DNA from: Mizuhopecten yessoensis
Lineage: Eukaryota
Assembly (NCBI RefSeq): GCF_002113885.1
Contig: NW_018404269.1
Location: 307,286 to 371,285 of the forward strand
Reading direction: 5' to 3'
DNA: 64,000 bases
Shown here: in pieces, positions 20,701 to 50,134 of the stretch
Layout: the number at the start of each line of letters is the position of its first letter
Numbering within the stretch: position 1 is the first letter of the stretch
Made by a program: the position numbers and the translations under genes
Notes under the pieces: generated by a model
Database searches by the model: none
Told to the model about the DNA's origin: nothing
What the model saw: only the letters and a program-made list of their open reading frames with translations

Positions 20701-21145
20701 AAATATTTAGATTCAAAGCTTTACTGAAAATGAATCCTTGTTCCTGAAACAACATGACTGGGCAAATAGAAGTAGTCCCGCCCATAGATATGTTAACTTT
20801 GGTCTGGTATGGACCTCACTATCGATACAAATGACCATGTTCACACAGGGCATTATTTGATCACCCATGTGTTGCTGACATGCTGTCGTTGATGCGCATC
20901 GTCATCTGGATTAACGTCATTTCCAGTGACGTGTCCTGCGTTGTACCTGACATGCTCAAGAAATAATTTCCAGATAGAAAATGAATTAGTTATGAATTTC
21001 CCTTCTATAACCTTAAGTATTAAAAAAAGTGAAAACGAAACGTAGCTACTACGCTTAGAGCTTCCTAATCTCAATCAGCAACATGTTCCTTGAGGCATGA
21101 GACGGGAGGCATGCTTTATACATATCATATATTCTACGGNGGATT

Positions 21146-23606: not shown

Positions 23607-25545
23607 TAGAGAATAATATAGACATATGTAATACAACGTGTGCTTTACTGTATTTCAGATTGTCCCATCATTTGTGACTAACAAATCAAAATAGACGAGT
23701 TCTTATCTATGATGGGACAACCTTGTAGTGATACAATACCCAGTCACCACTACTCGCTGAATCTACCCTTGGCCCTGCTCAAAGATGCCAGTGCTCAACT
23801 GCCCTATTGACGGCTGTACATACGCCACCCCTGATGTGGATGCCATTGTGGATGCAGCTCTAATCACCACTCATGCAACAATCCACAATGCCAATGCTTC
23901 ACCTGCTGCTATCGCGAAGGTTAAAAAAGTTAACCACCAACCATATCATCCGCCGGCACCAGTGAGGGCTGGTCATATTTCCTATCCAGATGGACTGACT
24001 ATGTTGAAGCCACCAAGGTTTCCGGCAAAGACATAGTGAATCAAATATTAAAGTGTTGCGAGGAGCACCTACGAAAGAATCGTACTTGTACTGCTGGTGG
24101 AACATTACCGAATAAATCTGAGGCAGAAGTTATCAGGGCTATGAAGACACTACACTATCTCCAGCCATGTGTATCTTTGGCAGGTCTATCAAGCATTTCA
24201 TTCAAGTTCTTCCTGGTCGATACAGACCACATAACACCTGGCAGGAGACATTGACCGCCAGAGAAGATGCACTTAGAAACAGACACATGAAGGCCGCTGA
24301 GCGTTGGTCTGAACACACCAAGCAACTACCACCGCTCGTCATTGGCAATCATGTCTGCATTCAAAACCGGACATGACCCAACCCTCGGAAATGGGATAAA
24401 ACTAGCAAGATAATTGAGGTCCGCCTACATGACCAGTATGTGGGAAGAATTGATGGTTCTGGTGGAGTAGCACTACGTCACAGCAACTTCCTCCGCAAAA
24501 ACGTTCCAGTTCATCCCCAGAGAACGCGAATCAGTATCGAGGATGACATGAAGAATGCTACCTCTAGGCCAAACCACACACCTGAGAGTCCAAAAAACTC
24601 CATTCACATTGAACAGGTTGTATCACCCAGCCCTGCTCCACCGCCAGCCATTCATGTACCACCGGAGAGTCCTATGTTACCAGATTAGGCTAATTTACAA
24701 AACACCATGGCTAATACTCTACTTGCCACCACCCTGGAACCACCACCGTTGGACGAGACCACGAACACACTTACCCGTTCTAAGCCAGCCACATGCGGTA
24801 CACCGCTGCAAAGGCTTTCGGTATCTCCAATTCCGTGTCCATCTACTTCTCCAGCTACAGGACAAAGTCAGCCACCTACACCTCGGGTACCGCAACATTG
24901 CCCATCAGCCACTGCTACTCGGGGATCCATATCCACCCGAAAAAGACTTGCTTGCCTAGACTCCAGATACTATGATATGTCTACCATATACGTGCCAGAA
25001 AAATCCTCAATATAAACAGGTTTATGGACTTATTATCCAGTGCTTGACAGAACAGTTTAAACAACTTTAATTATGTATATTATAATCTGTCCTTCAGTGT
25101 ATATAGTTACTTCATTAGAGACACACCAAAGACTTGGGGAGATAGAGAATATTCTCCCACACCTGACAGATTTATCTCCCGTTTTGCCGGTGCTAGATTT
25201 ATCTGTCTCCGCCCTAGGGTTGAGACGGGGGGATTCCCCTATTCATAACAATGGCATGACGTCACTTCAACAATACAATGAGGTCACGTCAACAATCCAT
25301 CAACAAATTGCCTGTATGTGTTTTGGGTCCATGTTTACCTTTATTTCACATTAAAATACGGCAAGCCTCGTTCTGGACAAAAAATCTTAGTCCTCGGGTT
25401 GAGATTTCTCTATCTTACACAACCAGTAGCGATAGATTCTATTAATATAGACGTATGCAATACAACTTGTACTTTACTGTATTTCAGATGGTCCCATCAT
25501 TTGTGACTTACAAATAAAGTGATCCAAATAGACGAGTTCTAATCG
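23607..25545 (+). mobile_element. Internally deleted, degenerate Ty3/Gypsy-like LTR retrotransposon
   Basis: Direct repeats about 23607-23709 and 25143-25545 (the latter with ~290 bp extra); gag-like N-terminus MPVLNCPIDGCTYATPDVDAIV; integrase C-terminus-like PGRYRPHNTW...LPPLVIG..V.IQN...KWDK...DGSG; purine tract ggggagatagag before the 3' repeat; stops and frameshifts throughout. Confidence 0.8.
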
Positions 25546-27641: not shown

Positions 27642-27668
27642 ATGTTGCGCATACTGGGTCGAGCTACG
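27642..27668 (+). CDS. CRAT: CRAT coding exon 1 (MLRILGRAT)
   Basis: ATG + 9 codons + strong donor ACG|gtgagt; phase 0 matches exon 2; presequence-like; lies downstream of ETS/NRF1-like motifs. Confidence 0.8.
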
Positions 27669-30600
27669 GTGAGTATGTTTATCAGTGCTTTTCACGAATG
27701 CGTTGCAAGAATAGCTTTCATTGACAGAGAATCTAGAACCTGATCGATTAGCTGCGCTAACGTAGCTTTCCGATGTCAGACGAGAGATTCTTTTTATATA
27801 TTGCGTCGTCAGAGGCCTAGGAGGCCGGGTATTAATATAAGTACTACTAATCGATCATAACTGTGAAGATAAACAATGACACTTGGTAATCTGCATTATG
27901 TCACTTAGATGTACCCATGCGACTTTCCAGTCTTTTTAAAACAAGTGGTGAACACGTACCGATTTCTTAAAGTTTAAGCAATTCACTGACTAGTTAATAT
28001 TGGATGTTTGATTAACCTGCGACTCATCAGCAGCGAGTCATCAATATGTAACAGGAGAAAGAGAGATATGCAACAGCCAGAACTGGGTTCGAACCTGGAA
28101 CCCTCTAGATCTCTACTATTTAAATTGAACTATCTGGTGGTCGATGATCGACTCTGCTACATTCCTCCCTCCTTTTTCTAAGTCTATGCCCCCCGAAGAC
28201 ACAACTATAATTACAACCCAGGTTCAGGTATCCCCTTGCCAAGCGTACCCCAAATGCTTGAAACAAGGGTTGGCAAGCTGGCCAATTTTGTGACAAGAGA
28301 GCTAGAAGGTAGGATTGTAAGTGATCATAAAATGCACAAACTGCAAGCATTATGTATACTGCTTCAAGTTTCTGGTGGATTTTCCACCACTTTACATTCC
28401 AAAATTGATCCAAAGATGACATCTGTGAAACCATTTTTTGCTTGATTGCCAAAAATGATTCCGAAACATTAAGTGAAGCTGAAACATGCACTTACAGTAT
28501 ATGTGTATAGATCTGTTTCCTTTAAATGATTCCCCTACCACTCCCATAAAGTTTAATATGCATTTCAACAGGACTAATTACCTAGATTTGATGTGAAATG
28601 TATTTATAAAAAAACAATAAAAAAATATTAAATAAACAAAATGTTATCAACGTGTTCTATTGTAAAAATTTGGCAGAGCTTTAATATACACGTGATCTAT
28701 GATTTGAACTCTGGGATTGTTGAGATTGTTGCATTGGACATATATATTGCTCTAACTGACTTGACTTCCTGCAAGGTCAACAGCTGAAGTGTTCTGGCCC
28801 AACTTTGCTTAAGTTATTGTTATATTCAAATATATCCAAATTGAAATTAAAGGGGGGAGGGGTTACAGTATAATATGAAAAACCAGTGTAGTGGGAGATA
28901 GAGTTCCGTAAACGGTCTTAACAGTTAGTATTAGCTTACCAGTATTCCTTTATATATAATCTACTAGGGTGCATCTTTTCAGGACCCTGTAATTTATTTG
29001 GAATAATCTTTAAAGTAGGGTTGTCAAACTGGACTCATCAATAGAGAATTTTACAATTAAGCTAGTTAAACATGGAGCTCGATCCCTATAAATGTCAGAC
29101 TATTCAGTTATTGATTTTGATGACTGGGTTTACAGTCTTCCAACTGAGTAACCACTTATCCGTTGACAACCCTACTTTAAAGTGTAATAATGTATTTTTT
29201 ATACTTTGCTTAATCTTCCATGCATCTATCTTAAAATTTTGTATTCAGATGTCTTTATTCAGACACTGCATTCATTTGTAACCTTACTGCATGCACAGTA
29301 GGCTTCGTGTTTAGTTCCACTTCTTTGATATATAATTTATGATATGTTAAAAGCTCCATTTCCATCAGTGGGAAATCAAGGGTATTTGATGAACATGTAT
29401 GCACATACAAACAGTGTAAGTATGTTTCAAAAATATTTTTTAGTTCAGTTTTCCATGCATAGCCGATCGGAAATCATAACAGTGTTCGAACTAACATAGA
29501 CCCATGCATGCATAGACACCATGAAAATCACCATAGGTCTATGGGGAAAATTTAATTCATAGACCAAGTTGAAGTTAATCTCTAGGATGTGTGTTATTCA
29601 ATGATAAATATAATAGTGTCAAACAAAATAATGTTTTTGTCCATTATTATAACACATATTTTCTTACTTTGATGATATACACCACTAAATATGCAAGTTA
29701 AATTTTCTTGGTAAAGGTCTGGTCTACCATAATTTCCGTAGGTCTATGACAAATTTATATATTTACATTTGCACTGCAGCCCACTTCATAAACATTACCA
29801 GCAAAAAATGAATTTCATTCGAGTATGAAAGCATAAACTCTTGTGACGTAACACGCGGTTTACTTATGACGACATAGATTAATCTTGTTCAATGAGAATC
29901 TTGTCGCTTCGCTTCGGATAACATGGAGAATGCCCCTATGTCAAACGCTCAAATGACTAGTTAGTTATTGGCGCCAATTTTATTTCAATAGGGCTGTTCC
30001 ACCAATGTCGTTTAAAGGACGACACATATATACAAAACGCAGTAAATAAATTAGTTATTTAAGAACAAATAAATAAAATGAAACAATTGTTCTATAATAA
30101 AAATGTAAATACATTTGTATATGGATTGAACAGCGTTTTTTAATTTTTATGCCAGTATGAATGCAAATCGGTTAGATCCATATAGCAGGCTTCATGCAAT
30201 ATGGATGAAACCGATTTGCGTTCATACCGGCATGTAAATTTAAAAAACACTGTTCAATCCCTATATAAATTTTAAACTCTAAGACTGCCACAACCAATTG
30301 AAAACTTTAAACTTTCTGTATGATGTGCATACTTTAACACATATTTGTGTATACACAGTACAGTATATCGACGTTTATGGATGCATGATTGTAAAAGGTG
30401 GTCATTATAAATTGTATAGTCATGGTCCTTATCAAGTGTTATCTAGGTAATCAACTTCTTGTTTTAATATCCTCCCATATTGAAAATAAAAGAGGATTAT
30501 ATGATAATATAATGATGGATCAATCCTTCCATCTGAATGAAACATAAGTTTTACAGGTAAACCTTGTTATACTGCCACCATTTGTGCAGAGAAAATTTGG

Positions 30601-33600
30601 CATTATGAAGGGGTCTGGCGATAAATTGAAGGTACTGTATAAGGAAATTCTCAAAAAAAAAAAAAAGGGACATGGAAATACATGTTGGCAGTAAAATGAG
30701 ATGACAAATGAAATGAAAGGCATTATATCAACATTTTACTGTACTTCTTCCACCTCTTCACACGAGACAAACACACTGTCTGTACGTCACATGGGATACT
30801 TTTTTAAGCTTCTGCTATCCTATATGGCTATACATTTAGTGACCTTGATCTAGTTCTAATTTACATATCTCTGAATTCTACCAAGGAAGGGAATCGAGCA
30901 GCTCAATCGAGTTAAATTATAATGTTCAACATCTTGTTGTCTGACACACTGAAACACAATACATACTAACATGTTATTAGATTAAGTGACATCATTAAAT
31001 CAATGTTTTTAAGCAGTAGAAGAAAATGCAAAGAACATGTAACATTATCAAGTGACACCCTTCTATAAAAAAAAAAGTGGGGGGGGGGGGCGCAGTGGCC
31101 AAGTTGTTGTACGGCGTCTGACATTCTGCTACCACTTGAGCCCTCAAACACTGGGTAGCGGGTTCAAGACCTACGTGGGGCAGTCGCCAGGTACTGGCTG
31201 TAGTTCGGTGTTTTTTCTCTGGGACATCCTACTTTCCTGCACCACCAAAACCTGGCACGTCCTTAAATGACCATAGCTGTTAATAGGACATAAAACACAA
31301 ACAACCAAAACCAACAATTGTTTTTTAGCCACAATTTAGGAAATATGATATTTATATAATGACAGTTATATTAACCCTTACACCACTGTACATGTATAGA
31401 CCATAATGGACTTATCCATATCAATGCATGGTAGAGTTTATTAAAGTTACATAGGGGTGAAAGGGTTTAGTATACCATAGAATAAAAGCAATACATCACA
31501 TTCACATATATATATCATGATCAGATATCTGTGATTTATGCATGGACATATTTACATACTAAAATGTATTACGTTCTCATGATCATTGCATGGCCTTATT
31601 TTTAGTTATATGAATGGTTATAAAAATAATCCAGAAACATGTACATCTGTAAAGTGCCCATGCTGTTCAGATCTTATAATGTACGTGTGTTTCTGATTAT
31701 TTTAAAATCTTCTCATATATATATACAAAGCTCATAAAGTCAATATAGTACTCGCACTGTTTGATTTGCCTCCACAAAAACAGTTACTCTGTAACATATT
31801 AGATAAAGCATGTGGTAGGTAGTGCTTGCAACTGTTACATGCAAAGTTCTATCCTCTATTTATATGATGAACCAGTACATATAAAGGCACTTAATTACAG
31901 TAAATACTCATTCTTTACCGTACATGTATCCTTTTCATGATAGATGAATATACATAATTTGTACATAGTCGATACACCAGACAGATTGATAGCACGACTT
32001 CACAGGTGAAAATGTGGGACACTTCATGTCATGATATAGTTCACAAGATTCACCTATATAACGATAGGTATATGCTGCTCATGACCATTGAGAAGGTTAA
32101 AGTCCACAGTGATGATCTGACAGCTCTAACAAACATGATCAGCAATAAACCCACATGCTTACATGGCGAGTAGAGCTGCTAGGGTAATACTGTTAGTGCT
32201 ACACTGCTGAAGATCAAAACTAGGTACATATGTGTGCTTTATCTAAATTCTTAGTATGACAATATTGACTTGTGTTTCATTTTTGATTTTAAGGTAATTT
32301 TGAATATCTTTACAATCCATGTATTATTATTAACCCTTTCACCCCTATGTAACTTTAGTAGACTCTACCATGCATTGATCTGGATGAGTCCATTATGGTC
32401 TACAGTGGTGAAAGGGTTAACAACATTGTAGATTGATGAATAGATCTGCAGAGTTATAAATGTATTTCATGAAATGTGTAATAACTATAAGGTGTATATA
32501 TCTATATTTAGTTGCACCTGTAAGCCTGAATCTTGAGTTACAAACACAGGTCGTCTGTATTATAATTTGTGTCAGCTGGAGACAGTGGTACTAGGAATTG
32601 TGGTGTAAAGTCAGTATTTAAGATATTTATAGACTATTGCTGCTCTTTTTGTGTCACCTGCAATGCGAGGCGACATACATATACAGTAGGTATTACTTAA
32701 CAAGATTTCCGTGCGATAACTTAAGTTCCCTTGGGTTGATTGAACTCAAACTTGGTACACAAATTGCATATACTAAAATAGCTCAGACAAATACGCATTT
32801 CAGAAGTGAACGTGCATTTTTGATGGAGTTATGCCCCCTTTATTTCCAAATAAGGGTATTGTGTATTAAATGCAAGAACGTTTTTATTTTTGAATCAATT
32901 CTTTTCAAATTTTGTACGGTAATAACTCAAGCCAAAACACGTACTTTTCTTACTAAAAGCGCTGAGCAGGTGACACATCCACTCCCATGGAATTCTTGTT
33001 TAGTTATCTCAACATACATGTAAGTTATTTAATGGCGGTGGATGTGTATAGTAATGTACATAGTGGATGAAACTTCATTTCAAAATATTTATCAATTGAG
33101 GAAGTTTCAAAAAACACCTTGCAAGTATATGTATATATATGTAGGTATACTTACAGAAATCAGAATTATATGTCTTGGTTGTTGACACCCTGACTATCCT
33201 CGATACTCTAGGGGTTACACTCACTTACGCTCACGATCTGCACCGCTGGAATATATGTCAAAGCAAACTTGAAGGCACAGGGCTAGCAAATTGATTGGTC
33301 TCAGGTAAACCCTGCCCAATCACTCTGCTGATATCTGTCCTTTGAAGACTATAGAGTTGCGACTCTCGACTTCAAAGCCAGTCAATTTTACTGTTACTCA
33401 ACTGCGGGATTCTTTAGATGCACATCAGATTAAAGGATCTATTTTTTGATATTACAAGTAAAGCGATCCATGTCCCTGTGGATCAAAGCTGCAGTCTTCT
33501 TGGCTCATGCATTAGGTGGCACACACTGAGCCTTTAATTTTGTCCTGACATATTCCAGGGGTTTAGAGGGCAGAAGTGAGTGTTGCAATCCCTGGAGTAT

Positions 33601-36600
33601 CGAGGATTGTTGGAAACATGAAACATTGCTTTCTATTTTAGAGTGCCCACCCTAAAAGGTAATGTTTTGTCTTTCTGCAGTCCCGAGGAATAGTGAGAGC
33701 TGTCCAGTGTACGTCCACAGCCATGACACACCCACCTCCAGGCAAGATGTTCTCCCTCCAGGCGTCTTTGCCCCGCCTTCCTGTCCCTCCCCTCGATCAA
33801 ACCCTCAACAAGTACCTGAAGTCTGTCAGACCCCTGCTCAGTGATGAAGAATTCAAGAACACAGAACAGGTTGGTACTATTGTAATCATGATGTAATTTT
33901 ACATATGTTACATTGACCTGTTGCCGTAGTTTTGGCAACACGTTGACGTCAGTAAATTATTTAAATTGTGTAACTTGACTTTACCTACATTTAAGGACAT
34001 CCTACTATATCTGATATGATTTTATGTTTAATCCCCTATATATGTACCCTAATGTTACTTACGCCATATATATATATTTATCCAGTAAATGATATAGTCC
34101 AACTTGAGCTTTTCATTTTATTTTTCTTGCATATTTAATTAAATTGCCATGTATTTTTATTTGTCAACCTGTTTGTGAACATGGACATGTCCATTATATG
34201 GGTGACTACTGTTAAAAAGAAAATCTTAGAAATACATTGCATAAAATCTATAAAAAATGCTTAGAAATGATGTTTTTCCAAATATGGCACCCAGTTTTTG
34301 TGATGTATAGTATTACAAGATGTATGCTATTACATTAGTAACGGCAACATATTTTTACATCTCATTTCAATTATTGGTGCTTAAGCATCAACACAAAAAG
34401 ACCATGAAATCAATTTTCATCCACTGTTACTAAACTTTCTCCCTGCTCATTTCATTACAATTTCTATTATGTTGCTTACTTAAATCTGATGTAATGATAA
34501 ATTCACCCTAATCACGGAGGGCGGAGAAGGTGAAAATTTAACTTCAGCGTAAACTCCTTGGTATACAGTAGTATAATATCATTACTAATACATTGAGGTC
34601 ATTTACTAACCATACATATTATATATAATTTTTATACATTTGATTTTTGTAAGAGTTACTTCTCTTAGTATGTTTGATACATCATATTTCATGCTGCTAA
34701 TAAATGTTTTATTACATAGAAATTAAGAATTTCATGTACCTGTGTTATAATGCATGTATTTTTTGTACCTTTAAAATGTCATAAATTAAACACGTAAACT
34801 CGAAGTCAGCGTTTCTAAGTCTTATTTGAAGGTGTTTTTTTTGTGTAGACTCTTTTATAGTGAAGATACACGTGTAAGCTTTTATGTATGTATCCTTAAA
34901 TATGTTAACAGTATCATGTAGCAGAAATGAAATGGTAGTATATATAATGATACTGAAATAAGTAAGTTCCTATTTAATCAACATAATGATTAGTCATTAT
35001 GTGCAATAGGTGTATGTCATGTCTAAAACAATTAAAAACAAATTAGATGAAAACTGTGTTATTTCAGTATTTTAAAACATTAACAGACATGCTCATTCAT
35101 TTGATATGTTCAATAGATAGTACAGGAATTCAGTAAAAATCCAGGACCCAAACTTCAGACACTTTTGGAACACAGAGCAAGTCAGGAAGAAAATTGGGTG
35201 AGTATAATGTTAAACACATTTGGTTTCGTTGTAAATTAGTGCTAAATGCAATGNNNNNNNNNNNNNNNNNNNNNNNNNNNNNNNNNNNNNNNNNNNNNNN
35301 NNNNNNNNNNNNNNNNNNNNNNNNNNNNNNNNNNNNNNNNNNNNNNNNNNNNNNNNNNNNNNNNNNNNNNNNNNNNNNNNNACGTAACCCAACAAGTGTG
35401 CCATTTTGGTGAATGCTTCATAAGCTTTTACATAAGGCAATGTATTTTTTCAATACACGTACAAAAAACTACAGTCTGGTGTATATTGTCATGGTAAATT
35501 CCTGAACAAGGAGAAAAAATTGGTTCATATGATATGCTCCCACTATAATAGCTTACAATCGGCTATTAGAGCCCACTTTCTGGAACTATATGATAAGTAG
35601 AATGAAAAGATCACATGATTTACCATCTGAGTTACACCTGACAATTTCATTATCTTAAAAAGAAGGAAAGCATATGTTTGGTTTTTTGGGGGGTTAAGTT
35701 AAGACATTAAGAATTTTCATACATGTAAATAGCATTATAGACAGTGAAACTTTTTTTTTTTTTTAATTTTGCATAATATAATTAATACCAGCGTTGTCTA
35801 CAAGTGAGAGTATGTGTGTAATGTCTGTTTGATATAGATGTAAAAAAAAAAAAAAGGAGAAAAAAAGATTTTTTTTTCAGTAATTAATACCACTGTATTA
35901 TATTATGCATGCAATGCAGCAAGACTGTATCATGCTATCATTCTGAAATACATTATTGTATTTTGACAATGTTAACTTTCAGCTGTCGGAGTGGTGGATG
36001 AAGACTGCCTACCTTGAGTTTCGGTCACCTGTTACAGTAAACGTCAGTCCAGGAATAGTGTTCCCGCGCCAGAGCTATAGAGACAAGGAAGGACAACTCA
36101 GGTCAGATTCAGTAGATATCATTGACGTTTACAGCGGAAGTTAAAGAATCGTAACATTCTGTAAAATAAACTTGAATTGGACCTAAGATTAGCTGTGTGT
36201 TGACTTTTTAGCCCACCATCATCTGATGGTGGGCTATTCAAATCACCCTGCGTCCGTGGTCCGCCATCCGCCGTCCGTCCGTAAACAATTCTTGTTATCA
36301 GTATTTCTCAAGAAGTACCAGAGGGATCTTTCTCAAATTTTATATGCAGGTTCCTCTTGGTCCTTAGCTGTGCAGGGCAACTTTTGAGACTGATCGGATA
36401 AACAACATGGCCGACAGGCAGCCATCTTGGATTTTGATAGTGAAAGTTTGTTATCGCTATTTCTCAAGAAGTATCAGAGGGATCTTTCTCAAATTGTATA
36501 TGTAGGTTCCCCTTGATCCCTCGTTGTGTATGTTTTATTTTGAGACTGATCATAAAAACAAAATGGATTAAAAGAAGAGCTAAACAGATCTTTCTCATAC

Positions 36601-39600
36601 TGCAATGATCGATTCTATTTCTTTCACATTAAGTACTGTACTAGTAAATATGTGAGATGACAAACTCACTTTGAAGGTTGGCTTTCATACACATCAGTAT
36701 TAAGTCTAGATCAAAAGTTACCTCAAGGTGCATTTACTGTTAACATGACTCGATCAAACAGATTAGAGGAAAGAAAAGATCGAACTGACAAAGAACTAAT
36801 GAAGATGGTACAAAGGTGGACGCCAAGATCCCTCTGGGATCTCTTGTAATTTAATAGTCATTTGTTTTGATTTATTTGTTGGTGTAAATTGAATGTTATT
36901 TCCTGCAAGTTTTCATTTTTTTTTTTTTTTTTCCCAGATATGCAGCCAAATTAATTGCTGGTGTCTTGGATTTCAAGCTCATGATAGACAAGTAAGTTTT
37001 TTTAGAAAAAAAATAAACGAAAGTTTAACTGCAGTGACTAACCGGGTCTGTACAAGATCTGTTACATAGCATTAACGTATATATCATTCTACTTCTATCA
37101 GGAGGTCCACGAAGAAATGACCAGTATAAGGTGAATAAAAAAGCAGCTCACTACAACATATGAGTTGGTCCTCGTATTATGGAAAGTCATGTACTCACAA
37201 AATGATCTTTTTTTGGGGAGAACCACAATATTTGGGCCCAAACAAAATATCTGATTTCACATTAACTTGATTGCCTACAAGATATTAGTTTACTTTACTC
37301 TGTCTATAGTTATATGTTATATGTCTGTTTGTTAATAAGGCTAAAATAAATTACTTGTGTTTCCACTATCATCCTCAGAAAAAACAGGGTAGGTAGATTG
37401 GCAATTGGGTTTTTTGGGAAAATATTTTTACTATGGTTATATAGAGCAGGAGTTTTGACTTGAACAGTGCATTATCAATAAATGCCAATAAAAACTTTAT
37501 GGTAGGCACGAAAATCTAGGGTGGGTAGGGGTAGCGGAAACAAGATTTTGTTTTGAGGCCTAAAAAAAAGTAACTAGCTATAGGTCGCCTCTGGTATTTA
37601 AAAAATCTAATTTTATAAATAATTCTGTTTTTCCATCTCTAGCCAGACGTTGCCAGTGGAACACATGGGTAAGAAGCCCCTGTGTATGACCCAGTACTAC
37701 AAGATCTTGTCTGCGTGTCGTACACCTGGCAAAAAGTGTGACAGTTGGACCTGCTACCCTCCCGACCAACCAAACGCCCCAAAGAGCATTATAGTGGCTC
37801 ACAACAACCAGGTGAGTCCATAGCTACTGTACAAAACTCCCTTGGTTTGTAACATTAAGCTTTGAAACATACTGGAAGCATGTTCCACATCCAGTTAAGT
37901 ACGGTATGGTGTTCATGTTTTTTCGTTGAAAGATAGGTGATTTGACTACGTTAGGTATTCATTAGTCCTCCTTTGGAAACTGTAAAATGGGTTAAATACA
38001 TACTGGCATACTGTAGGTGAATAATAGAATTGTTGAGGATAAAAAATAAAGGCTATTAGGATGATAAAGGTAAAATTGATAGTTTGAATAAGTAACAATG
38101 TCCATTCTGGAGGGTAGAATACTGTAAAGTTGCTAATATTCATGAGGGTTTTTAATTTTGCTGTTTTCGTAATTGCTTCAAAACTCACAAATTTTGTACC
38201 TCATGAAATGGTTTGATTTTGGCAAGAACATCCACATTTAACACGTCAGTGATGCCAGTTGAGTTGAGGCTTATACTGAGTCTACGGTAGTCCTATAGAA
38301 TTGAATTTAGTTATAATTGGCACTCAGAACTATTTACGAGGTTCTCCAAAATGAGCTTAGACCAGTTGTACTTCGCGAAAATAAAACCCTGCAAATAAGT
38401 TAAGTAAACAAAATTATGAAATTTTGCACCCCTGAAATTGAACATTTAAGTGATGTGAATGAGGAGCTGTGTTCTGGAAGGTAAAATGTAGAAAATGATT
38501 TGTATGATGAACAATATCATGGAGGGTTAAAAAGATATAGTAGCAAGGGTGCTAGTGTTACAAAGGAAACTGATCTCTGTTGCAGTTGTTTGCACTAGAT
38601 GTTTATGGTTCTGATGGAAAACCACTGTCTGAGGCCCAGATCTATCGTCAGCTGAAGAGCTTAGTACAGGAATCTGACCAGGTGGCCACGCCCGTGGGAC
38701 TCCTCACCACAGAAAACAGGTCCACCTGGGCCAAGGCCTACAGCGAACTAGCCAAAGGTAACAAGTACTAAAATTACATATACAAACTATCAGTTCCCAT
38801 GAAGATGCTGCAAAATCCAACATTATGCTTCTTATCCATGATATTATATACTGTGAAATCACTCATTTTTGTGGGGGTTTTAATTTCCTTGATTTCGTTT
38901 GTACTTTTCATCCACGAATTCATAGGTCCAAGAAGTAATAACAGGTTTGGCATGGAGATATTCCTCATATGAATGGTTACTTGTAGTCAACGAACTGATG
39001 TACACACAATTTTTTTTATTTTTTTGTTGAAACCCACGAAAGTATCTGATTTCACAGTAATGTGATGCAGTAGCAGTCCGAGGTCAATATATCTGTTCTC
39101 GGGTCGATAAATCCAGGTATCTACCAAAGTTAAAGGGTGCAATTGTTTTATTATTTTCAAAACAGTAATGTAAGCAATCTGAAAAAACCCACCAAAAAAG
39201 CCTCGAAAGCAGAACGGTGCATTGTTCGGAGACACATCATAATTCTATTTTTAGACACATCCAGTCCTTCAACAAAAATCATGCGCTCCAAGTCAATATC
39301 GGTTTTTATCGGTGGACACATGATGCACTCCTGGCCAATAACTTGTCGTGAATAATATGAAAAAATAATATCTGATAAAATTCAATACAATGAAAGGAGA
39401 AGCGATATTATCTTTTGATGAATACAAATGTATGTATGTTCTCTCAATATAAACAATAATCCTTTAACATCTAATTTTTGCTTTTTGTCACAACTTTATG
39501 TATTTATATTATGCACTTAGATTTTATTTCAACTTCAGAGTGAATCGTTTAAGATTTGTGAACTTGTACCGAGGATGCACTTTAGCTTTACACGAGCACA

Positions 39601-42600
39601 CCTTTAGATGCATGTATGATACATATCTATTTAACTGTCCACAGATAAAGAAAACAGTGCCAGTCTAGACCGGATCAAGCACAGCATTTGTGTGGTATGT
39701 TTAGACAACAACCTACCACAGGACATGAGTGATGAGCGTAGCGTGGCCGCACGACAAATGTTACATGGTGGAGGTGATTGTCTAAACTCCGGCAATAGGT
39801 GGTTTGACAAGACAATACAGGTAAATCATTTAATTAAGACCTGTCTATACTGATAAAATATATATCATATACTGTATATGATCATTTGTAAATGAGTGTA
39901 CTACTCAAAGAAATTATAAGATTCAGATATTGTAAAAAAAGACACTTGTATGTACATGTGTAGTTAATTAGACTGGCCCCCTTCTGTAGAATATTATATA
40001 GATATTAAGTTATTTACTTGAATGTCAGATTCTAAACTAAGGAGAGTTAACTAGTGTAGTAAAATGCAGTTGAGAAATTCTTCATAAAAGCTTAGGGGCT
40101 AGTAGGCAGTCTAATGTGAAGTAATGATAATCAGGTATCCTTTCTCTACCTCCAGTTCGTGGTTGGGAGGGACGGTATCAGTGGACTGACATATGAACAC
40201 ACATCAGCAGAAGGACCCCCAGTGGTGATGCTGCTCGACCATGTCGTTGCTTACTGGTAAGTTTGATTGTAATGCTTCAGTGACAGGTGCCTTAATGAGT
40301 ATACACAGATACATAATGATAGGCTATATGATTATGCAATGACAGTGTGGTGGTTTTAATCTGTTTTGTTTGTGATTGGAATAGGCACTTTCTATAGGAA
40401 AGTAACTTTGTGTAGCAAATCAAAATACAAAGAGTAGCAGCTGGTAAAGAGCTACCTAATACCTATACCAGCAGTCCAAGGCCGCATTTGTTCATCATGA
40501 TTCAAACGGTTGGACCGGTTGGACCACAGTTGTTCGTTTATGAAATAAGGCCGGATCTAGTAATCTGATGCTGCTTTCAGGCGAGCCTTGACAAAACCTT
40601 GTAGACCAGTCCAGTGTAACATATTCACTTCAGTCAGGCAAACATCAGTGGTAATTAGCTAGTATCTATGATAAATAATGATATTCAGATACATTTAATA
40701 TACCATTGAACTTGTTTGTGTGTATATATATACTGCACACATAGTTATTATACCCCCGCAACGAAGTTAGGGGGGGTATACTAGAATCACCCTGTCTGGA
40801 TGTCTGGATGTCTGTCATCCGCAGTAACTTGTCCGGAAAACTCCTCCTTAACGAACTGGTGGATTTCATTGAAACTTTGCATGAATGATCAGTATCTTAT
40901 GTAGTTGTGCACCAGCATTTTAATTGGGATTTCGACCCTTTTTGATCGAGTTATGCCCCTTTTTGCGAAATACTTGTCCGGAAAACTCCTCCTTCATCAA
41001 CTGGTGAATTTCATTGAAACTTTGCATGAATGATCAGTATCTTATGTAGTTGTGCACCGGCATTTTAATTTGGGATTTCAACCCTTTTTGGTGGAGTTAT
41101 GCCCCTTTGTGCAAAATACTTGTCCGTTCAACATCTCCTTATCTAACAGGTGGATTTCATTGAAACTTTTCATGAAAGATCAGTATTTTATGTTTTTGTG
41201 CACTGGCATTTTGATTTGGGATTTCAACCTTTTTGGTGGAGTTATGCCCCTTTTTGCGAAATACTTGTCTGGAAAACTCCTCCTTAATTAACTGGTGGAT
41301 TTCATTGAAACTTTGCATGAATGATCAGTATCTTATGTAGTTGTGCACTGGCATTTTAATTTGGGATTTCGACCCTTTTTGGTGGAGTTATGCCCCTTTG
41401 TGCGAAATACTTGTCCGCGCAACGTCTCCTTATCTAACAGGTGGATTTCAGTGAAACTTTGCATGAATGATCAGTATTTTATGTATTTGTGCACCAGCAT
41501 TTTAATTTTGGATTTCAACCCTTTTTGATGGAGGTATGCCCCTTTTTGCGAAATACTTATTACTGGTGGGAGACTATGGATTGCTTTGCAATGCTTTGCC
41601 TTAGTTAAGCCTTTAACTTACAGTTTTGGTTTATATAGCAGGTGGGGTATTAGTTAGCCTTTGGCTTACAGTTCTAGTTTAATTTTGTTAATTTTCAGAA
41701 ATGAATAAATTGTAGATTTATAATACCTTCCAGTCCCAAAAATTCTTTACAAAATATTGTGTGTACTGCATACTTTAGATCAGTTTTGCAAATTCTGTCA
41801 CATAAAAAAATTGTTTAGTTATTTTCTGGTTTTAATTTGGATACAAGCTAAACATTCACAGTCTGCTAGCTATGATTGAATGTGTTTAATGGTTATATTA
41901 CTGTACTAACAGTTGCAGTTCACAACAACCATGAAAACCCAAGAAATTAAATACACAGGTCATGTGATAGAGTAATATATTCTATCTTGGAAAAGAATGC
42001 CTGTAGTGTTGAAGTAATTAAAATGGTACAATATTTCTGTCATTTCAGTTCTAAAAACAAGTCATCTGGATCAGATTCCCCCGCTCCACCCACACCAACA
42101 AAGCTCACCTTTAACCTTAGTACGAACATCAAGGACATGATAGCCACAGCCCGGACCCAGTTGGATGTGTATGTACTGTTGCATTTACCTCTCCTGATCA
42201 TTATACTTTCATTATATTTTACAATGTATTTTATCCAAGAAAAATGCTTTTAAAGTCAATTTTTCATGTAAGAAACTGTGTATAAAATTAATCACACAGT
42301 AAATGATAAAACAGTCTCTCAGTTATTACGAACACTTTACTATAAAATGATTGTACTTCGTTAATCTACATACGTTATTCAGCCAAATTTATTTTGCAAT
42401 ACATAGTACATTTCTTTACTACTAAGGTTTGTGTAAATGTCTATCTATGTATAGATCTGATTTGTTTTGACAATTGTGTTTGGTCTGTAGATTGGTGGAC
42501 GATGTTGATCTTAATGTGTTCGTGTTCAACGATTATGGCAAGAACTTCCCCAAGTCACAAAAGATGAGCCCCGACAGTTTCCTACAGAATGCTATACAGC

Positions 42601-45600
42601 TGGCATACTACAGGTTAGTATAACTGGTTCTGTGACATGTAACTGATTCTATGACATGTATAGCTATATAGTTTATACCATCTTTTATCACAGCAGAGAT
42701 TTCATGCTAGCTCAGCTGATTTACAGTGTTGAATGAGCTTCTGTGAGCTCTGTCATCGAATGAGCTTCTGTGAGCTCTGTCATTGAATGAGCTTCTGTGA
42801 GCTCTGTCGTTGAATGAGCTTCTATGAGTTCTATCTGGCGTTGAATGAGCTTCTGTAAATGAGCTTCTGTGAGCTCTGTCTTGTCATCTATCTGACTCTT
42901 TATTTAATTTTTCATACATCTGTTTGTTTTCCATTAGTTTTTCCATTCCTCAACTGTTTGTCAGTCTGTTGAAAACTTATGTCAGGAGAATAACCTCTTA
43001 ACTGATGAAAACATATTAATAAAACTTCATTTATAGGCATACATGTATCTAACCTCTTTATGGGATTGTGCCATGGACCATTTCCAGGCCTCTCACCTCA
43101 AGGAAGACGAATCAAATGCGGTCGAATTTCAAAAAAAAAATCTTGTTTGGAGTATAACTTATCCACACTGTAATGAATTATCATAGATCAGCTATTTGCC
43201 CTAAGTAGATAATGTATTATCGCCAATTTTCTACCCTCAGTCTATATATATATAGTCAAAGTCAACAAATGAAGACCATTAGTGTCATAGCAAAGCTTTA
43301 ATTCTTGTTACAGTTAACTAATGACAAGTATATCATCACTTGGAGATCTATGTATGCCGCATAGATCTGGTGTGAATCCATCAGTAAAGCTTCAAGTTGA
43401 AAACAGCTTCAGGGGTTAGATATTTATCTTGACTAGCATATTATTTCCAATTTGTTGTACCTTTTTAGCTCACCTGGCCCGAAGTGCCTAGTGAGCTTAT
43501 GCCGTGGCGCGGTGTCCGTTGTCCATCCGTCATCCGTCCGTCCGGCGTCAATATTTTAAACGACTTTAAAACAACTTCTTCTTAATAACCAAAAGGCCTA
43601 GGGTGATGATATTTGGCCAGTAGCATGCTGGGGTAAAGGGCTATCAAGTTTGTTCAAATGTATGACCTTAACCTATATTCAAGGTCACAGGGGTCAAATA
43701 TGTGAAAAACATTAAACAACTTCTTCTGAATAACCAAAATGCACAGGGTAATGATATTTAGCCAGTAGCATGCTGAGATGAGGGGCTACAAAGTTTGTTC
43801 AAAGAATGGCCTTAACCTATATTCAAGGTCACAGGGGTCAAATATGTGAAAAACATTAAACAACTTCTTCTGAATAACCAAAATGCACAGGGTGATGATA
43901 TTTAGCCAGTAGCATGCTGAGATGAAGGGCTACAAAGTTTGTTCAAAGAATGACCTTCACCTATATTCAAGGTCACAGGGGTCAAATATGTGAAAAACAT
44001 TAAACAACTTCTTCTAAATAACCAAAATGCACAGGGTGATGATATTTGGCCAGTAGCATGCTGAGATGAAGGGCTACAAAGTTTGTTCAAATGAATGACC
44101 TTCATCTATATTCAAATATGTGAAAAACATTAAACAACTTCTTCTGAATAACCAAAATGCACAGGGTGATGATATTTAGCTAGTAGCATGCTGAGATGAA
44201 GGGCTACAAAGTTTGTTCAAAGAATGACCTTCACCTATATTCAAGGTCACAGGGGTCAAATATGTTAAAAACCTTTAAACAACTTCTCAATAACCAAAAG
44301 GCCTAGGATGATGCTATTTGGCCAGTAGCATGCTGTGATGAAGGGCTACCAAGTTTGTTCGAATGAATGACCTTGACTTATATTCAAGGTCACATGGGTC
44401 AAATATGTTTAAAACCTTTAAACAACTTCTTCTGAATAATTAAGAATAACTTACGATATTTGGCCAATAGCATGCTGTGATAAAGGGCAACCAAGTTTAT
44501 TCAAATGAATGATCTTTACTTATATTCAAGATCACTGGGGTCAAATATGTTTAAAACTTTTATACAACTTCTTCTGAATAACAAAGAGGCCAAGGATAAT
44601 GATATTTGGCCAGTAGCATGCTGGGATAAAGGGCTATCTAGTTTGTTCAAATGAATGACCTTTACTTTTATTCAAGGTCACAGGGGTCAAATATGTTTAA
44701 AACCTTTAAACAACTTCTTCTCAATAACCGAATTCTTAGGATGATGATATTTGGCCAGTAGCATGCTGGGATAAAGGGCAACCAAGTTTATTCAAATGAA
44801 TGATCTTTCCTTATATTCAAGATCACTGGGGTCAAATATGTTTAAAACTTTTATACAACTTCTTCTAAATTAGCCAAAGGCCAAGGGTGATGATATTTGG
44901 TCATTTACAGGCTGGGATGAAGGGCTACCAATTTTGTCAAAATGAATGACATTCCACCCATATTCAAGGTCACAGTGGTCAATACATGTTTAAATCTCTA
45001 AATGACTTGTTCTGTATAACCAATAGGTCCAAGGTAATGATATTTTGCCAAAAGCATGCTGGGTTGGAAGACTTTAAACTCTGTTCAACCTAATGTCCTT
45101 GTTCGCCATTCAAGGTCACAGGCATCATATGTTTAAATCTTTTAATAGGTTCTTATGAATCAAACACTGATATTCTGCTTGTAGCTGTATTTTAGTCCAC
45201 TTTTAAGATTACAAGTGTGAGATTTATACCAGGTGAGCTATTCAGGCCCATTCGGCCTCTTGTTTCTAAACAATAGGCTTCATGAGATGAGTGGGAATTG
45301 TTTCAGCAAAACACTGTGGGTAAAAAGATAAGAAAATTTCAGAATTATGATCTTCAATGAATTGATAGCTGGGTTCTACTGATGGTATTCAAATTTTAAA
45401 GTTCATCTCTGAAACAAATTCATGAAAATCTCATTTATTGTTTTACTGCTGTTAAGAAAAGTTTCTTTCAACAGCCTCAGAATATCAAAATCATTTATAT
45501 CTTGGTTGCTTCATTTGACTTCAGAATACACAATGAGCCAGCACCCCACTATGAGACTGGTACCCTGCGTATGTTCCACCTGGGGAGGACAGATACTATC

Positions 45601-48600
45601 CGGTCATGTTCCGAGGCCTCTCTGGAATTTTGTAAAGCTTTTGTGGACGCCAATACGTCCAAGGAACACAAGGCAGAGTTATTGAGGAAAGCGGTTCAGG
45701 CACACAAAAACTACACCAACGAGGTATGTAATACCAGTATCACACCAGGCACACAAAAACCACACCAGGCACACAAAAACAACACCAATGAGGTATGTAA
45801 TACCAGTATCACATGTACACCAGGCACACAAAAACTACAACAACAAGGTATGTAATATTTGTATCACACCAGGCACACAAAAACTACACCAACGAGGTAC
45901 AGTATGTAATACCAGTATCACACCAGGCACACAAAAACAACACCAATGACAAACCAGGCACACAAAAACTACACCAACGAGGTACAGTATGTAATACCAG
46001 TATCACACCATGCACACAAAAACAACACCAACGAGGTATGTAATACCAGTATCACACCAGGCACACAAAAACTACACCAATGAGGTATGTATATATATAT
46101 AAATACCAGTATCACACCAGGCACACAAAAACTACACCAGGCACACAAAAACTACACCAACGACACACCAGGCACACAAAAACTACACCAGCGAGGTACA
46201 GTATGTAATACCAGTATCACACCAGGCACACAAAAACAACACCAATGAGGTATATAATAACAGCATCACAAAATCAGACCATCATCTTGACTATCAGAGT
46301 TTTCAGTTTCGTTTATAACATTAAAAACAACTCTAGAGCAAGTAGAGTAAAACCCCACTTCCTCAAACTCGATTCACTCAACCTATATTCCTGGAACAAA
46401 AATGTGTCCCCAACTCTTCATGGTGATAGTATTTATCCTATCAGTATCTATTCGTCTAATAGTTGTGACCTGTCATGCCTGACAAATATTTTACCTGTTT
46501 ATCACACCGGCACTGCCGTCAATATGTCTTCAGGCACAGGCTGCGGTCCACGCTCATTGTGCTTGATTAGAGGATTAACGGCAGTATCATAAAGCAACTG
46601 TAAAGTTACCCTGTTGTAGCTGCTTTATCATTTTGTGTGCATTTTTATTTTTCCAGACAACGTTTTAACATCAATTATTTGGTGGAAATATGAATTCACT
46701 GAGTGTGTAAATCCATATTTTGGCATACAATATTAAGCGGAAATCACGTAGCGGATTCTTGACCAACTTTAAAGATATTCAAACTTGAATACGCCGTGAT
46801 TGTTAATTTCGTTATCAAACAAGGATTCAAAATTTTCCTCATTTTAAAATGAATGAAGGGTTCCTTTCGTTTTTACATTTTGTAAAATTAACGTAGCCGA
46901 TAACAGTATGGCAGACTATGTCAAAATGAAAAGTATGCTACACATGCAGCTTTTAAATTTTATTTACTGTCTTAATACCGGTGGCTATATGTTTTCATTG
47001 TTTAGCTGTTTTAAATCTTATTAAATGCAGTCATCTTGATTAAACTTCTTAATCGAATACCATGTATTCCTCGAACTATTGATCTGGACCCTACGAGGTC
47101 GAGTTAGCGGGGTTTTACTGTAAGTAGTAAATGAATAGGTTAATAGGTGCAGATATATAGGTGATGGTTGGTTAATTTTCAGATTTCATAATGATGCGAG
47201 GTTTACTGAGTATCTTTTTAGTTTTACAATTTGAAAATTGACTAACAAGAGTTAAAAATTATAGATACACATGATAATCAGTCATCACAAGTTTGGGAAC
47301 CTTTCTCTCCCGCAACATTTAGGTACAATGTATATAAACATCTAGCAGAGTATATGTTTCTCTTGGGAATAATACATTATTCCTGTTTCCAATCGGGGAA
47401 TATTCCCATGAACTATGACGTCACAGCGGAAAATGACGTCACAAAGCAATGTTACTTGATGTGGTTTTTAGAGGATCGACCAATGAAAGAATGGCCAGGG
47501 TGTTACACATTAGAAGGTAACAAAAAATGGTTACCAACTCCTAGCTGGTTTATCAATTGAGTTATGACTGAGGAAACCTAAAGTGGTTTTTGGAGAAACA
47601 TTTTTAATCTGTAAGAGTTTTGAGCTGTTTTGTATTCATAAAGCATAAACAAGCATATTTACATGTAATGTATTTAGAGTTTGGGTGTTGCAGGTCATAC
47701 AAGGAATGGGTATTGATCGTCACCTCATGGGACTAAAACTGGCAGCAATAAAGAATGGTATGAATGTCCCAGACCTCCATATGGATATGGCTTACACCCT
47801 CAGTACACACTTCAGGATGTCAACTAGCCAGGTACAGTGTACTAACCTTAATTATATCTCTTACTCTGAAAACTAGAATCCCATTTTTATCTCATACAGA
47901 GTTCATGGTCGACTTATGACCTCTTCCTTATATTTGTCAAATAAAGATGTTTCCAAATTTTTGTTCTATTTATGAATAAAAAGCACACTTATTTGCCCTT
48001 AAGGGTCTCCGCACCACTGTCAAAAACTATTACTATGTATTTCCAGCATGACTGTAGCTTTGATAAATTATTTCTGAAACAAAAACCATTCCCTATGGGA
48101 CTTTAATGAGAAATATTAAGATGAAATAGACAAAATGTAATATCCAACTGTATTCTGGGTGTAAAACAGATCAACATTTATATCAATCCAAACAAAAGTT
48201 ATTGGGAGGTTATACTGTATATACCAAAAACCACAGTGTCATGGGACAGGTATCCTTAATATAAGTTACAGGATCTCCTGCCTCATACTTCACCCGATGA
48301 TGTCACATATGTACCCGTTATCTTAAGTTATTTGGTGCTTCTGTCTGAATATATGTCGTTTATAAAGTTGAGTAAATCTTACCCATAGAGGAGAGGTGTT
48401 TGCTTTAAATAAAACATTAATTTCACAAATTGGAATGGTCACATGAGAAGGGAGACAACTTGAGGATCCCTGTCCCATTGCAATGCTGTTTTTGTCTCGC
48501 TGCAACGAAGTAGTGGAAGCGAGACTAAGGTGTTGTTTTTACGGCGATAGCGGTGGCGTTAACATTACGTTTTTGCGTTTAACTTAGTTTCACTGAAAGT

Positions 48601-50134
48601 ATAAGTGCTAAACCAACCAAATTTGGACTATAGATGCATCTTAGGTATTACATCTCAACACATGCATCAAATGCTGGATGCAGCTAATTACCTTTCATGG
48701 TCCATTGACTTTGTCAGCATCTTCATCAACATTAAGATTTTGTGTTTAAGTTAGTTTCTCTGATATGTGCATTGATGGTTTAAGCAGGGCACAGGTGAGA
48801 CATATCAATCTGATTGGCTTGTTCCTATATATATAGTAACCTTCCATTTGGATATAACTAGCACAGCTGGACCTGGACACTTCCATTGTATAGGTAACTC
48901 AGTGGGTTAGACTGATAGTAAAACAATCTGAAGTCCAGGGTTCCAACCTTGGTCTAGCCCAGCTAATTTTTATGGAAAAAATATTTTGCGGTTTGAATAT
49001 TTGTATTTGTTATAATTATGTATGACATCAAATATGATGTGACCTTGATCTGAATGACATTCTTTATGACTATGGATATGAAACAAATCTGTAAGACCAT
49101 CATCAAAACAGACATTTGGTTTTCATAAAGATGTTATTTGAAACAAAATATAAGCATAGTGATTTTAGATATGATGTGATATTAACTGAATATTCCTTTG
49201 AATCAAAAGGTGCCAGCACACTCAGACTCAGTATTGGTGTTTGGTCCGGTTGTCCCTGACGGCTACGGTGTATGTTATAACCCACAGGAATCACAGGTAA
49301 GACATCTCACAGGTAGTGTCATGTTGTGTATATGGATTTATCAGTAGAATATACTAGTTAGGCTTCAAATTGCATCCAATTTGGAATGAATAAAAACGAT
49401 ATGTGATATAAATTGATGAGGCCGGTGATATCACAGGGGTTTATTACAAATGATATATCGATGTCGATCATAGTATGATAAAGATGTGAAATCTTTTTAT
49501 TTCACATTCTGAAAAAGAACACTATTTCACATCTACCACGGAATTAGATTAGATTGCTATCTAAGTCCCTACATCTTATGACTAAAATTCTTTACATTCT
49601 GATGCATGTTTATAAAAAATGAAGTTTTAAGACAAAAAAAAAACTGGTTCTATATCTTTCCTCGATTGGACGTGAAAAGGTATGGGGGTCATGATCACCT
49701 GTCTGACCACATGTGTTTTCTCTGGGTACTCGGTTCCTCCCACACTGCATGCTAACATCCTGGCCAACAAGAGTGATTAATTAATATAAGTTGAAATAAC
49801 TTGTTTCATAATTGTTGTAAAATAAATTAAGTAAATATATATACATTTTTTTTTAACTTTCACTTATAGTGAAATCTTATCAATATAAAAGGTTCTACCA
49901 CTTTTTACGCTTCATGGATGATAAAACCCAAGTGTACTGTAATGTAAAACAACTGAAATCTAGTTAGATCATGTTTGTTGTATAATATCCTTGTATATTT
50001 GTTAGGTACACTTCGGAGTGTCAGCTTTCAACATAACTCCTGAAACAAGCTCGAAGAACTACATCAACATGCTGAGGAAGACACTGCTGGAGATGAGAGA
50101 CCTTTTCCAGGGATCAATGAATTCCAAGCTTTAA
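27642..50134 (+). CDS. CRAT: Carnitine O-acetyltransferase, 15 coding exons, 627 aa, predicted mitochondrial and peroxisomal (SKL)
   Basis: Exons: 27642-27668, 33681-33869, 35117-35197, 35983-36101, 36938-36991, 37643-37811, 38586-38757, 39645-39820, 40156-40256, 42049-42168, 42491-42613, 45525-45723, 47694-47831, 49210-49296, 50006-50134. All GT-AG with phases consistent; 1884 nt. Motifs: [15 protein letters not shown], catalytic YEH(TSAEGPP), [15 protein letters not shown] and IDRHL (carnitine-type, not ChAT VDN), [14 protein letters not shown]; ends ...NSKL*. Confidence 0.95.
28060..28145 (-). mobile_element. tRNA-derived SINE head (family also at 50593-50681 and 51008-51103, plus strand)
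   Basis: Shared tagctcaattggta...ggttc(a/g)a.cccagt.ctgg...tgcatat...tcctgtta. Confidence 0.65.
29008..29182. mobile_element. MITE with 20-bp perfect TIRs
   Basis: ctttaaagtagggttgtcaa ... ttgacaaccctactttaaag. Confidence 0.75.
30123..30260. repeat. Long imperfect hairpin (MITE-like)
   Basis: ggattgaacagcgttttttaa...atgcaaatcggtt ... aaccgatttgcgttcata...aaaaaacactgttcaatcc. Confidence 0.8.
31089..31315 (+). mobile_element. tRNA-derived SINE
   Basis: A-box-like cagtggccaag, B-box gggttcaagacc, V-like core, (AAAC)-rich tail. Confidence 0.7.
31371..31469. mobile_element. piggyBac-like MITE (TTAA|CCC...GGG), copy A
   Basis: ttaacccttacacc ... ggtgaaagggttta; inverted relative to the copy at 32330-32420. 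Confidence 0.7.
32330..32420. mobile_element. piggyBac-like MITE with TTAA flanks, copy B
   Basis: ttaa|ccctttcacc ... ggtgaaaggg|ttaa. Confidence 0.8.
32646..33001 (+). mobile_element. Helentron-associated non-autonomous element (HINE-like)
   Basis: T-rich start, subTIR tgtgtcacctg ... caggtgacaca, short 3' stem, then ttgttt. Confidence 0.65.
33196..33607. mobile_element. TIR element just upstream of CRAT exon 2
   Basis: atcctcgatactctagggg...acactcactt ... aagtgagtgttgcaatccctggagtatcgaggat. Confidence 0.7.
33681..33869 (+). CDS. CRAT: CRAT exon 2 (SRGIVRAVQ...[13 protein letters not shown]...TEQ)
   Basis: tttctgcag| ... CAG|gttggt. Confidence 0.93.
35117..35197 (+). CDS. CRAT: CRAT exon 3 ([14 protein letters not shown]...ENW)
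   Basis: caatag|ATA ... TGG|gtgagt. Confidence 0.9.
35254..35381. other. Assembly gap (Ns) in CRAT intron 3
   Basis: Run of n; exon 3 (NW) joins exon 4 (LSEWW) directly, so no coding exon is hidden. Confidence 0.95.
35983..36101 (+). CDS. CRAT: CRAT exon 4 ([14 protein letters not shown]...)
   Basis: tttcag|CTG ... AG|gtcaga. Confidence 0.93.
36205..36847 (+). mobile_element. HINE-like element with GTCC microsatellite and two ~157-bp internal repeats
   Basis: tttttagcccaccatc..gatggtgggcta hairpin, (CCGT)n, 3' ggtggacg + agatccc..gggatct stem + cttgt. Confidence 0.8.
36938..36991 (+). CDS. CRAT: CRAT exon 5 ([17 protein letters not shown])
   Basis: Long poly-T tract, cccag| ... AA|gtaagt. 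Confidence 0.93.
37337..37563. mobile_element. Possible PIF/Harbinger-like MITE
   Basis: taa|ggctaaaa...tgtttcc ... ggaaacaag...gaggcc|taa. Confidence 0.45.
37643..37811 (+). CDS. CRAT: CRAT exon 6 ([19 protein letters not shown]...HNNQ)
   Basis: ctctag| ... CAG|gtgagt. Confidence 0.93.
38586..38757 (+). CDS. CRAT: CRAT exon 7 ([14 protein letters not shown]...[16 protein letters not shown])
   Basis: ttgcag| ... G|gtaac. Confidence 0.93.
38851..39057. mobile_element. Tc1/mariner-type MITE with TA target-site duplication
   Basis: ta|ctgtgaaatca ... tgatttcacag|ta. Confidence 0.75.
39645..39820 (+). CDS. CRAT: CRAT exon 8 (DKENSASL...LHGGG...NRWFDKTIQ)
   Basis: ccacag| ... CAG|gtaaat. Confidence 0.94.
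40156..40256 (+). CDS. CRAT: CRAT exon 9 (catalytic His, [10 protein letters not shown])
   Basis: ctccag| ... TG|gtaagt. Confidence 0.94.
40748..41680 (+). mobile_element. HINE/DINE-1-like element with five ~145-146-bp internal repeats
   Basis: ttatacccccg...ggggggtata 5' hairpin, short tgtctgga microsatellite, repeat anchors at about 40861, 41006, 41152, 41297, 41443; 3' ggggtatt subTIR. Confidence 0.85.
42049..42168 (+). CDS. CRAT: CRAT exon 10
   Basis: tttcag| ... GT|gtatgt; PTKLTFNL segment. Confidence 0.9.
42491..42613 (+). CDS. CRAT: CRAT exon 11 ([26 protein letters not shown])
   Basis: ctgtag| ... AG|gttagt. Confidence 0.94.
42729..42880 (+). repeat. 27-bp minisatellite (TGAATGAGCTTCTGTGAGCTCTGTCAT)n, about 5 units
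   Basis: Directly visible in CRAT intron 11. Confidence 0.9.
43462..45265 (+). mobile_element. HINE-like element carrying about 11 tandem ~145-bp units
   Basis: tttttagctcacctg...gtgagct 5' end, (GTCC)n, unit anchors acaacttc at about 43571, 43716, 43860, 44004, 44134, 44279, 44422, 44564, 44710, 44855; 3' caggtgagc + aggcc..ggcct stem + cttgttt. Confidence 0.9.
45525..45723 (+). CDS. CRAT: CRAT exon 12 ([19 protein letters not shown]...AHKNYTNE)
   Basis: cttcag| ... GAG|gtatgt (first of several repeated donors). Confidence 0.92.
45697..46252 (+). repeat. ~49-bp tandem repeat derived from the CRAT exon-12/intron-12 junction
   Basis: Unit CAGGCACACAAAAACTACACCAACGAG|GTATGTAATACCAGTATCACAC; the first unit overlaps coding sequence. 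Confidence 0.95.
46344..47121. mobile_element. Tc1/mariner(pogo)-type non-autonomous element
   Basis: agtaaaacccc...aactcga ... tcgagttagcggggttttactg|ta. Confidence 0.6.
47694..47831 (+). CDS. CRAT: CRAT exon 13 ([12 protein letters not shown]...MSTSQ)
   Basis: ttgcag| ... CAG|gtacag. Confidence 0.94.
47999..48260. mobile_element. Kolobok-like non-autonomous element (TTAA flanks)
   Basis: ttaa|gggtctccgcaccac ... gggacaggtatcc|ttaa. Confidence 0.5.
48489..48823 (+). mobile_element. Short HINE-like element
   Basis: tttttgtctcgc...gcgagac hairpin; 3' caggtgagaca + caatc..gattg stem + cttgtt. Confidence 0.65.
49210..49296 (+). CDS. CRAT: CRAT exon 14 ([29 protein letters not shown])
   Basis: Weak acceptor tcaaaag|GTG ... 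CAG|gtaaga. Confidence 0.92.
49672..49830 (+). mobile_element. 5'-truncated V-domain-type SINE (same family as 11926-12141)
   Basis: Shares gtgaaaaggtatggg, ttttctctgggtactcggttcctcccac and ggccaacaagagtgattaat...aacttgtttcataattgttgtaaaataaa. Confidence 0.75.
50006..50134 (+). CDS. CRAT: CRAT exon 15 (VHFGVSAF...FQGSMNSKL*)
   Basis: tttgttag|GTA ... TCC AAG CTT TAA. Confidence 0.93.
   Translation, partial: VHFGVSAFNITPETSSKNYINMLRKTLLEMRDLFQGSMNSKL

Follow-up and report, generated by a model that had tools for sequence, protein, structure and literature searches.

A minisatellite across the exon 12/intron 12 junction of scallop CRAT carries a ladder of potential splice donors

Results

The CRAT locus

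The window, the whole 64,000-nt stretch of Mizuhopecten yessoensis DNA analysed here, holds the CRAT gene on the plus strand (27642..50134). The model of 15 coding exons translates exactly to P0001, a 627-aa PF00755 protein whose source label is Mizuhopecten yessoensis and which is 100% identical to the window-encoded protein; the exon 12 sequence matches carnitine O-acetyltransferase proteins. Coding exon 12 of 15 (45525..45723, plus strand) is 199 nt long and ends in phase 0 after E510. Its authentic donor, GAG/GTATGT, occupies 45721..45729 (plus strand). Intron 12 has 1970 nt, the shortest CRAT intron 322 nt, and coding exon 13 follows at 47694..47831 (plus strand), with the start that the original prediction had named.

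In an alignment of 72 proteins (69 + 3, mostly mammals, eight of them scallop-like), 71 lack any insertion at the exon 12/13 junction. The one exception, mouse CRAT isoform c (P0037), has five extra residues, the last of them Q, exactly at the scallop junction. Other indels of the alignment lie after residues 156, 212, 270, 328-329, 363, 403 and 443, all of them CRAT intron positions. The comparison suggests that the exon structure is conserved and that intron 12 is ancient, its position apparently being common to mammals. The junction sits nine residues N-terminal of the Arg of a conserved DRH motif, a residue that presumably binds carnitine; the literature search found no paper on a carnitine-binding Arg. 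The AlphaFold model of P0001 is poor (mean pLDDT 45.9) and would place the junction near the end of helix 490-512.

Other repeats lie in and around the gene. Satellite arrays of 144-146 nt occupy 40827-41558 and 43550-45063, in CRAT introns 9 and 11, and a very high-copy dispersed repeat lies at 45100-45267. At 42615-42870 a 19-nt duplication follows the exon 11 donor by a few bases, with a 27-nt array beyond it. Elsewhere in the window, 168-3193 is a tandem duplication with 2226-nt spacing, whose open frames at 168 and 2394 are nearly identical; 14400-21100 carries exons of a flavin-containing monooxygenase on the minus strand (PF00743), one exon being present twice (near 16700 and 20400); and the open frames at 23761-25012 resemble decayed retroelement pieces, the two that were scanned having no Pfam match.

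Anatomy and origin of the array

The array runs along the plus strand from 45697, where the original prediction had it begin, to about 46270 rather than 46252; there its worn last unit merges into unique intron sequence. It comprises 13 head-to-tail units of 20-60 nt (49, 20, 55, 49, 54, 31, 54, 49, 60, 20, 31 and 54 nt, followed by the worn unit), within the 10-160-nt class of minisatellites. The basic unit of 49 nt is, as had been proposed, the last 27 nt of exon 12 joined to the first 22 nt of intron 12. Unit 1 thus encloses the true exon-intron boundary and the splice site is reiterated in the intron by eight further donor copies. Nine of the 13 units carry a donor; the four that lack one are the 20-nt and 31-nt units, two of each length. 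Variant units comprise these deletion units, three with a GTACA insertion, and others with insertions of 6 nt and 11 nt. The repeat finder and TRF are concordant on the array, which with TRF scores of up to 392 is far beyond chance.

The 12-mer core of the unit occurs 13 times in the window, with starts from 45697 to 46223, always within the array, and the array stretch has a single place in the genome assembly (G000) by a search that skips common words. A dispersed element as the source of the unit was rejected on that result. The exon-derived 27 nt of the eight extra donor-bearing copies are within 0-2 letters of the true exon end, so the array would be young or homogenised; those before the donors at 45896 and 45981 are identical to it over all 27 nt. 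TCAG stands at both edges (45696..45699 and 46274..46277, plus strand) and is likely the microhomology of the first duplication. The array may thus have arisen by slippage-type, microhomology-mediated duplication of roughly 50 nt (about 53 nt) between two TCAG motifs, with later growth and shrinkage through further slippage or unequal exchange. The 20- and 31-nt units would be deletions of the 49-nt unit, the former probably between two ACACCA motifs.

The donor ladder

All nine donor-like sites lie at the positions originally claimed, so that the description as a minisatellite with eight potential donors behind 45723 was correct. GTATGT follows 45723, 45792, 45847, 46035 and 46084; GTACAG follows 45896, 45981 and 46195; GTATAT follows 46249. 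Five of the nine match the donor consensus at seven of nine places, and the real CRAT donors match it at five to eight.

The second donor, after 45792, is identical to the first from -3 to +6. Its use would extend exon 12 through the candidate segment 45724..45792 (plus strand), adding 69 nt and 23 aa in frame, as the original prediction had stated, and giving a 650-aa protein. It is the sole extra donor predicted to keep the frame. Use of 45847 would shift the frame and bring a stop within exon 13, 21 nt from its start. Extension to any of the six donors at 45896 and beyond would run into the TAA at 45853 and yield 553 aa. The seven further copies (45847, 45896, 45981, 46035, 46084, 46195 and 46249; 45845..46255, plus strand) would therefore introduce premature stops if the exon were extended. 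These seven of the eight extra donors would truncate the protein at stops more than 200 nt ahead of the last junction. Stops so placed normally trigger nonsense-mediated decay (NMD).

Sequencing data

Four of 19 listed sequencing runs were compared over 45100-45818. DNA contigs of two of them, X1 and X4, which come from two studies and from other animals, contain the unit junction. Their array bins have 1.5-17x the single-copy depth, reaching 9-17x, a summed contig depth that gives no copy number. The GTACA variant is present in X1 contigs and absent among the X4 matches listed. The two runs also differ in array depth, which is not convertible to copy number, and variation in array length between animals is plausible, though putative.

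X11 is taken, by guess, to be RNA. Its contigs cover exon 12 at a depth of 22.5 and leave the end of the upstream intron 11 uncovered. Its 833-nt exon contig stops at 45725 and the DNA contigs stop at 45726. The former end fits an assembly fork at a first-donor-only node, where GT-C would lead into exon 13 and GT-A into read-through. Per copy, the array in X11 has about 2-15% of the depth of the exon, and this depth shows no fall after 45792 (a weak measure). Of the words in a stretch with an exonic share of about 0.19, X11 contains 0.44, and so it includes much intronic sequence. Its read-through past 45723 is explained by unspliced RNA or DNA, and downstream donor use is also compatible with it; since there is none across the intron 11 end, the pattern fits slow removal of intron 12 or some downstream donor use. 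X19, the one raw-read RNA run, has zero depth on exon 12 and is uninformative on splicing, its reads falling only on the dispersed repeat at 45100-45267.

The species has one annotated protein, of 627 aa, which is made from the donor at 45723. No longer isoform exists among the four cluster members of the species, all four being at most 627 aa. The first donor is most likely kept in use: annotation and X11 contigs, both indirect indicators, agree on it.

Junction-spanning arrays elsewhere in the genome

TRF detected 55 arrays of at least 200 nt and at least five copies in 26 other stretches of the assembly, a sample of 228,269 non-N bases that is not random, 11 of the 26 stretches coming from one contig. 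Five of the 55 lie in 70 kb of the window's own contig, and the window itself contains two. By a rough estimate, an array would be expected to begin no more than one unit length from a donor in 2-13% of genes with 14 introns. A donor-like motif is present in 18 of the 55 units versus 10.3 expected from shuffles.

One of these arrays, L025:427-1255 (G000:C1400), is a confirmed parallel. It lies in a TGFBR3-like ZP gene, where its 36-nt units set in within an exon, about 22 nt inside it, and repeat the donor CAG/GTTAGT at least 14 times; the proteins of two other scallops join at this exon junction without insertion. Pfam and Atlas gave no identification for the exons, which homology search assigned as TGFBR3-like. 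That a sample of 228 kb yields a second case suggests many such arrays, and in the scallop genome they look common. In the same TGFBR3-like gene, a 50-nt array (L025:6674-7121) immediately follows the transmembrane exon's donor, and its units carry GAG/GTAAGT, nearer consensus than the real donor. At L005:3078-3986 a 38-nt array starts from ACAG/GTAAAT after a 55-codon open frame, a possible third case with a putative exon. The arrays at L018 and L026 were considered as further cases and are not supported or unclear. The literature search found no paper on scallop arrays of the junction-spanning kind.

Discussion

We propose that the array is a minisatellite specific to this locus, its first unit lying across the CRAT exon 12/intron 12 junction, that it is likely neutral and that the first donor is likely kept, a reading to which we assign a probability of about 0.8. 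Neutrality would follow if, as is likely, the spliceosome stays with the most upstream donor (45723) and the other copies leave with the intron. Rare slips to donors 3-9 would produce mRNA that is truncated and prone to NMD; at donor 2 they would insert 23 aa where homologues almost never have an insertion. The array is probably harmless. The single annotated protein, the 71 of 72 homologues without insertion and the end of the X11 contig at 45725 argue for first-donor use, which would also match most known arrays of this build. The density of minisatellites in the sampled stretches, and the one among them that copies another gene's donor, speak for the proposed reading as well. Against it stand the X11 read-through past 45723, the identity of donors 1 and 2 over -3 to +6, the fact that contigs drop rare forms, and the two extra donors used in both CBS and 6-16, as given in excerpts of PMC1557585.

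A leaky donor shift, in which 45792 serves a minor but measurable share of transcripts (at least 5%) and a 650-aa protein is made, seems unlikely, though it is the most probable of the alternatives. The identical 9-mer and open frame would permit it, the low read-through in X11 is compatible with it, and in CBS and 6-16 the extra donors closest to the authentic one are in use (excerpts of PMC1557585). However, no isoform of this kind is annotated, X11 depth has no step at 45792, weak as that measure is, and the insertion would fall close ahead of the conserved Arg of DRH.

The broader proposition is a splice dial of variable length: use of 45792 would duplicate a helix end in a CRAT of 650 aa, the donors beyond it would lead to NMD, and array length would set CRAT output between scallops, in a genome that may hold hundreds to thousands of donor ladders. 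We regard this as improbable. Were it true, such ladders would be a natural test bed for the choice of the first among identical 5' splice sites outside mammals. The narrower version, in which a functional variable repeat tunes CRAT output by sending transcripts into NMD, is very doubtful. The truncating outcome predicted for seven of the eight extra donors would suit it, and human repeats whose length is linked to splicing are documented (excerpts of PMC10078293). It nevertheless presupposes use of the potential donors and a putative length polymorphism, and arrays like that of CRAT are expected by chance at this density of repeats. For the tuning of CRAT splicing or NMD suggested by the original prediction we found no evidence, and the annotated protein and X11 contigs point to the first donor.

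Recruitment of a 24-nt unit as a micro-exon cassette, or intron gain in progress, is scarcely credible. Seven units do have AG and GT 24 nt apart in phase 0, as had been noticed, but the octapeptide AHKNYTNE, attributed to many units, is exactly encoded in three of the seven. Acceptors were scored with a crude model built from the 14 acceptors of CRAT, on which the real sites, left out one at a time, range from -5.1 to 9.6. Of the 11 internal AGs, ten have scores between -1.5 and -6.4, against a median of -3.1 for 1037 decoy AGs. The sole positive score, 1.2, belongs to the AG before the best micro-exon-shaped unit (AHKNYTNE; 45873..45896, plus strand); the score lies inside the real acceptor range and the real donor is 149 nt away, which leaves this AG as the one candidate acceptor. 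From an array donor the next AG is 25-79 nt away, which would mostly be too short for an intron. No micro-exon joint is present among the X11 matches listed, in contigs that drop rare forms. The doubt already voiced about micro-exon use was thus well placed. An intron-gain model had been proposed for the amphioxus 'mirages' (excerpts of PMC3087553). In the Rogers model a duplicated exonic AG/GT creates a new intron position; the array lies within an existing intron, and as the position of intron 12 is apparently shared with mammals, the intron-gain reading falls away.

The chance of an assembly artefact is negligible: repeats are prone to mis-assembly and the exact unit number does rest on the assembly, but the unit junction in DNA contigs of two studies, the raised depth of their array bins and the GTACA variant in X1 argue that the array is no mis-assembly, in support of its existence rather than its unit number.

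On the neutral, first-donor reading the array alone matters little, as one more junction-spanning minisatellite that is probably silent. Should its length affect how CRAT is spliced, the array would provide a marker for selection in this farmed scallop. A genome-wide count combined with RNA-seq could test in a mollusc the rule that the most upstream donor wins.

Repeats of this kind have been described before in human and lancelet genes, to which the CRAT array adds a further case. Repeats linked to splicing in human have been catalogued (PMC10078293), and the comparisons below follow excerpts of the sources cited. One close counterpart is the 37-bp VNTR of human F7 intron 7 (IVS7), whose first unit also lies across the exon/intron boundary, so that identical donors follow the real one, and only the most upstream of them is used (PMC1557585). 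F7 units include 4 exonic nt compared with 27 in scallop CRAT; they are uniform and their polymorphism is shown, whereas CRAT units vary in length and polymorphism is putative (PMC1557585). The 31-bp VNTR of human CBS intron 13 (IVS13), c.1444_1467+7(16_21), resembles the CRAT array in a mostly exonic unit that copies the donor, with 24 exonic and 7 intronic nt (PMC2630376). Two extra CBS donors are reported to be used, as cited in PMC1557585, whereas those of CRAT are only potential. The human 6-16, lamin B2 and PDGF minisatellites reiterate donors as the CRAT array does; 6-16 uses two extra donors, lamin B2 and PDGF only the authentic one (PMC1557585). Among these five human arrays, three therefore use only the first donor and two use two more (PMC1557585). 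The amphioxus mirages (Adh3, BflGb6 and BflGb9) are likewise invertebrate, minisatellite-like duplications of exon-intron boundaries with AG/GT signals, and they splice normally (PMC3087553). They belong to a different phylum and their units measure 10-72 bp in Adh3 and about 157 bp in the globins, compared with the basic 49 nt of the CRAT array (PMC3087553).
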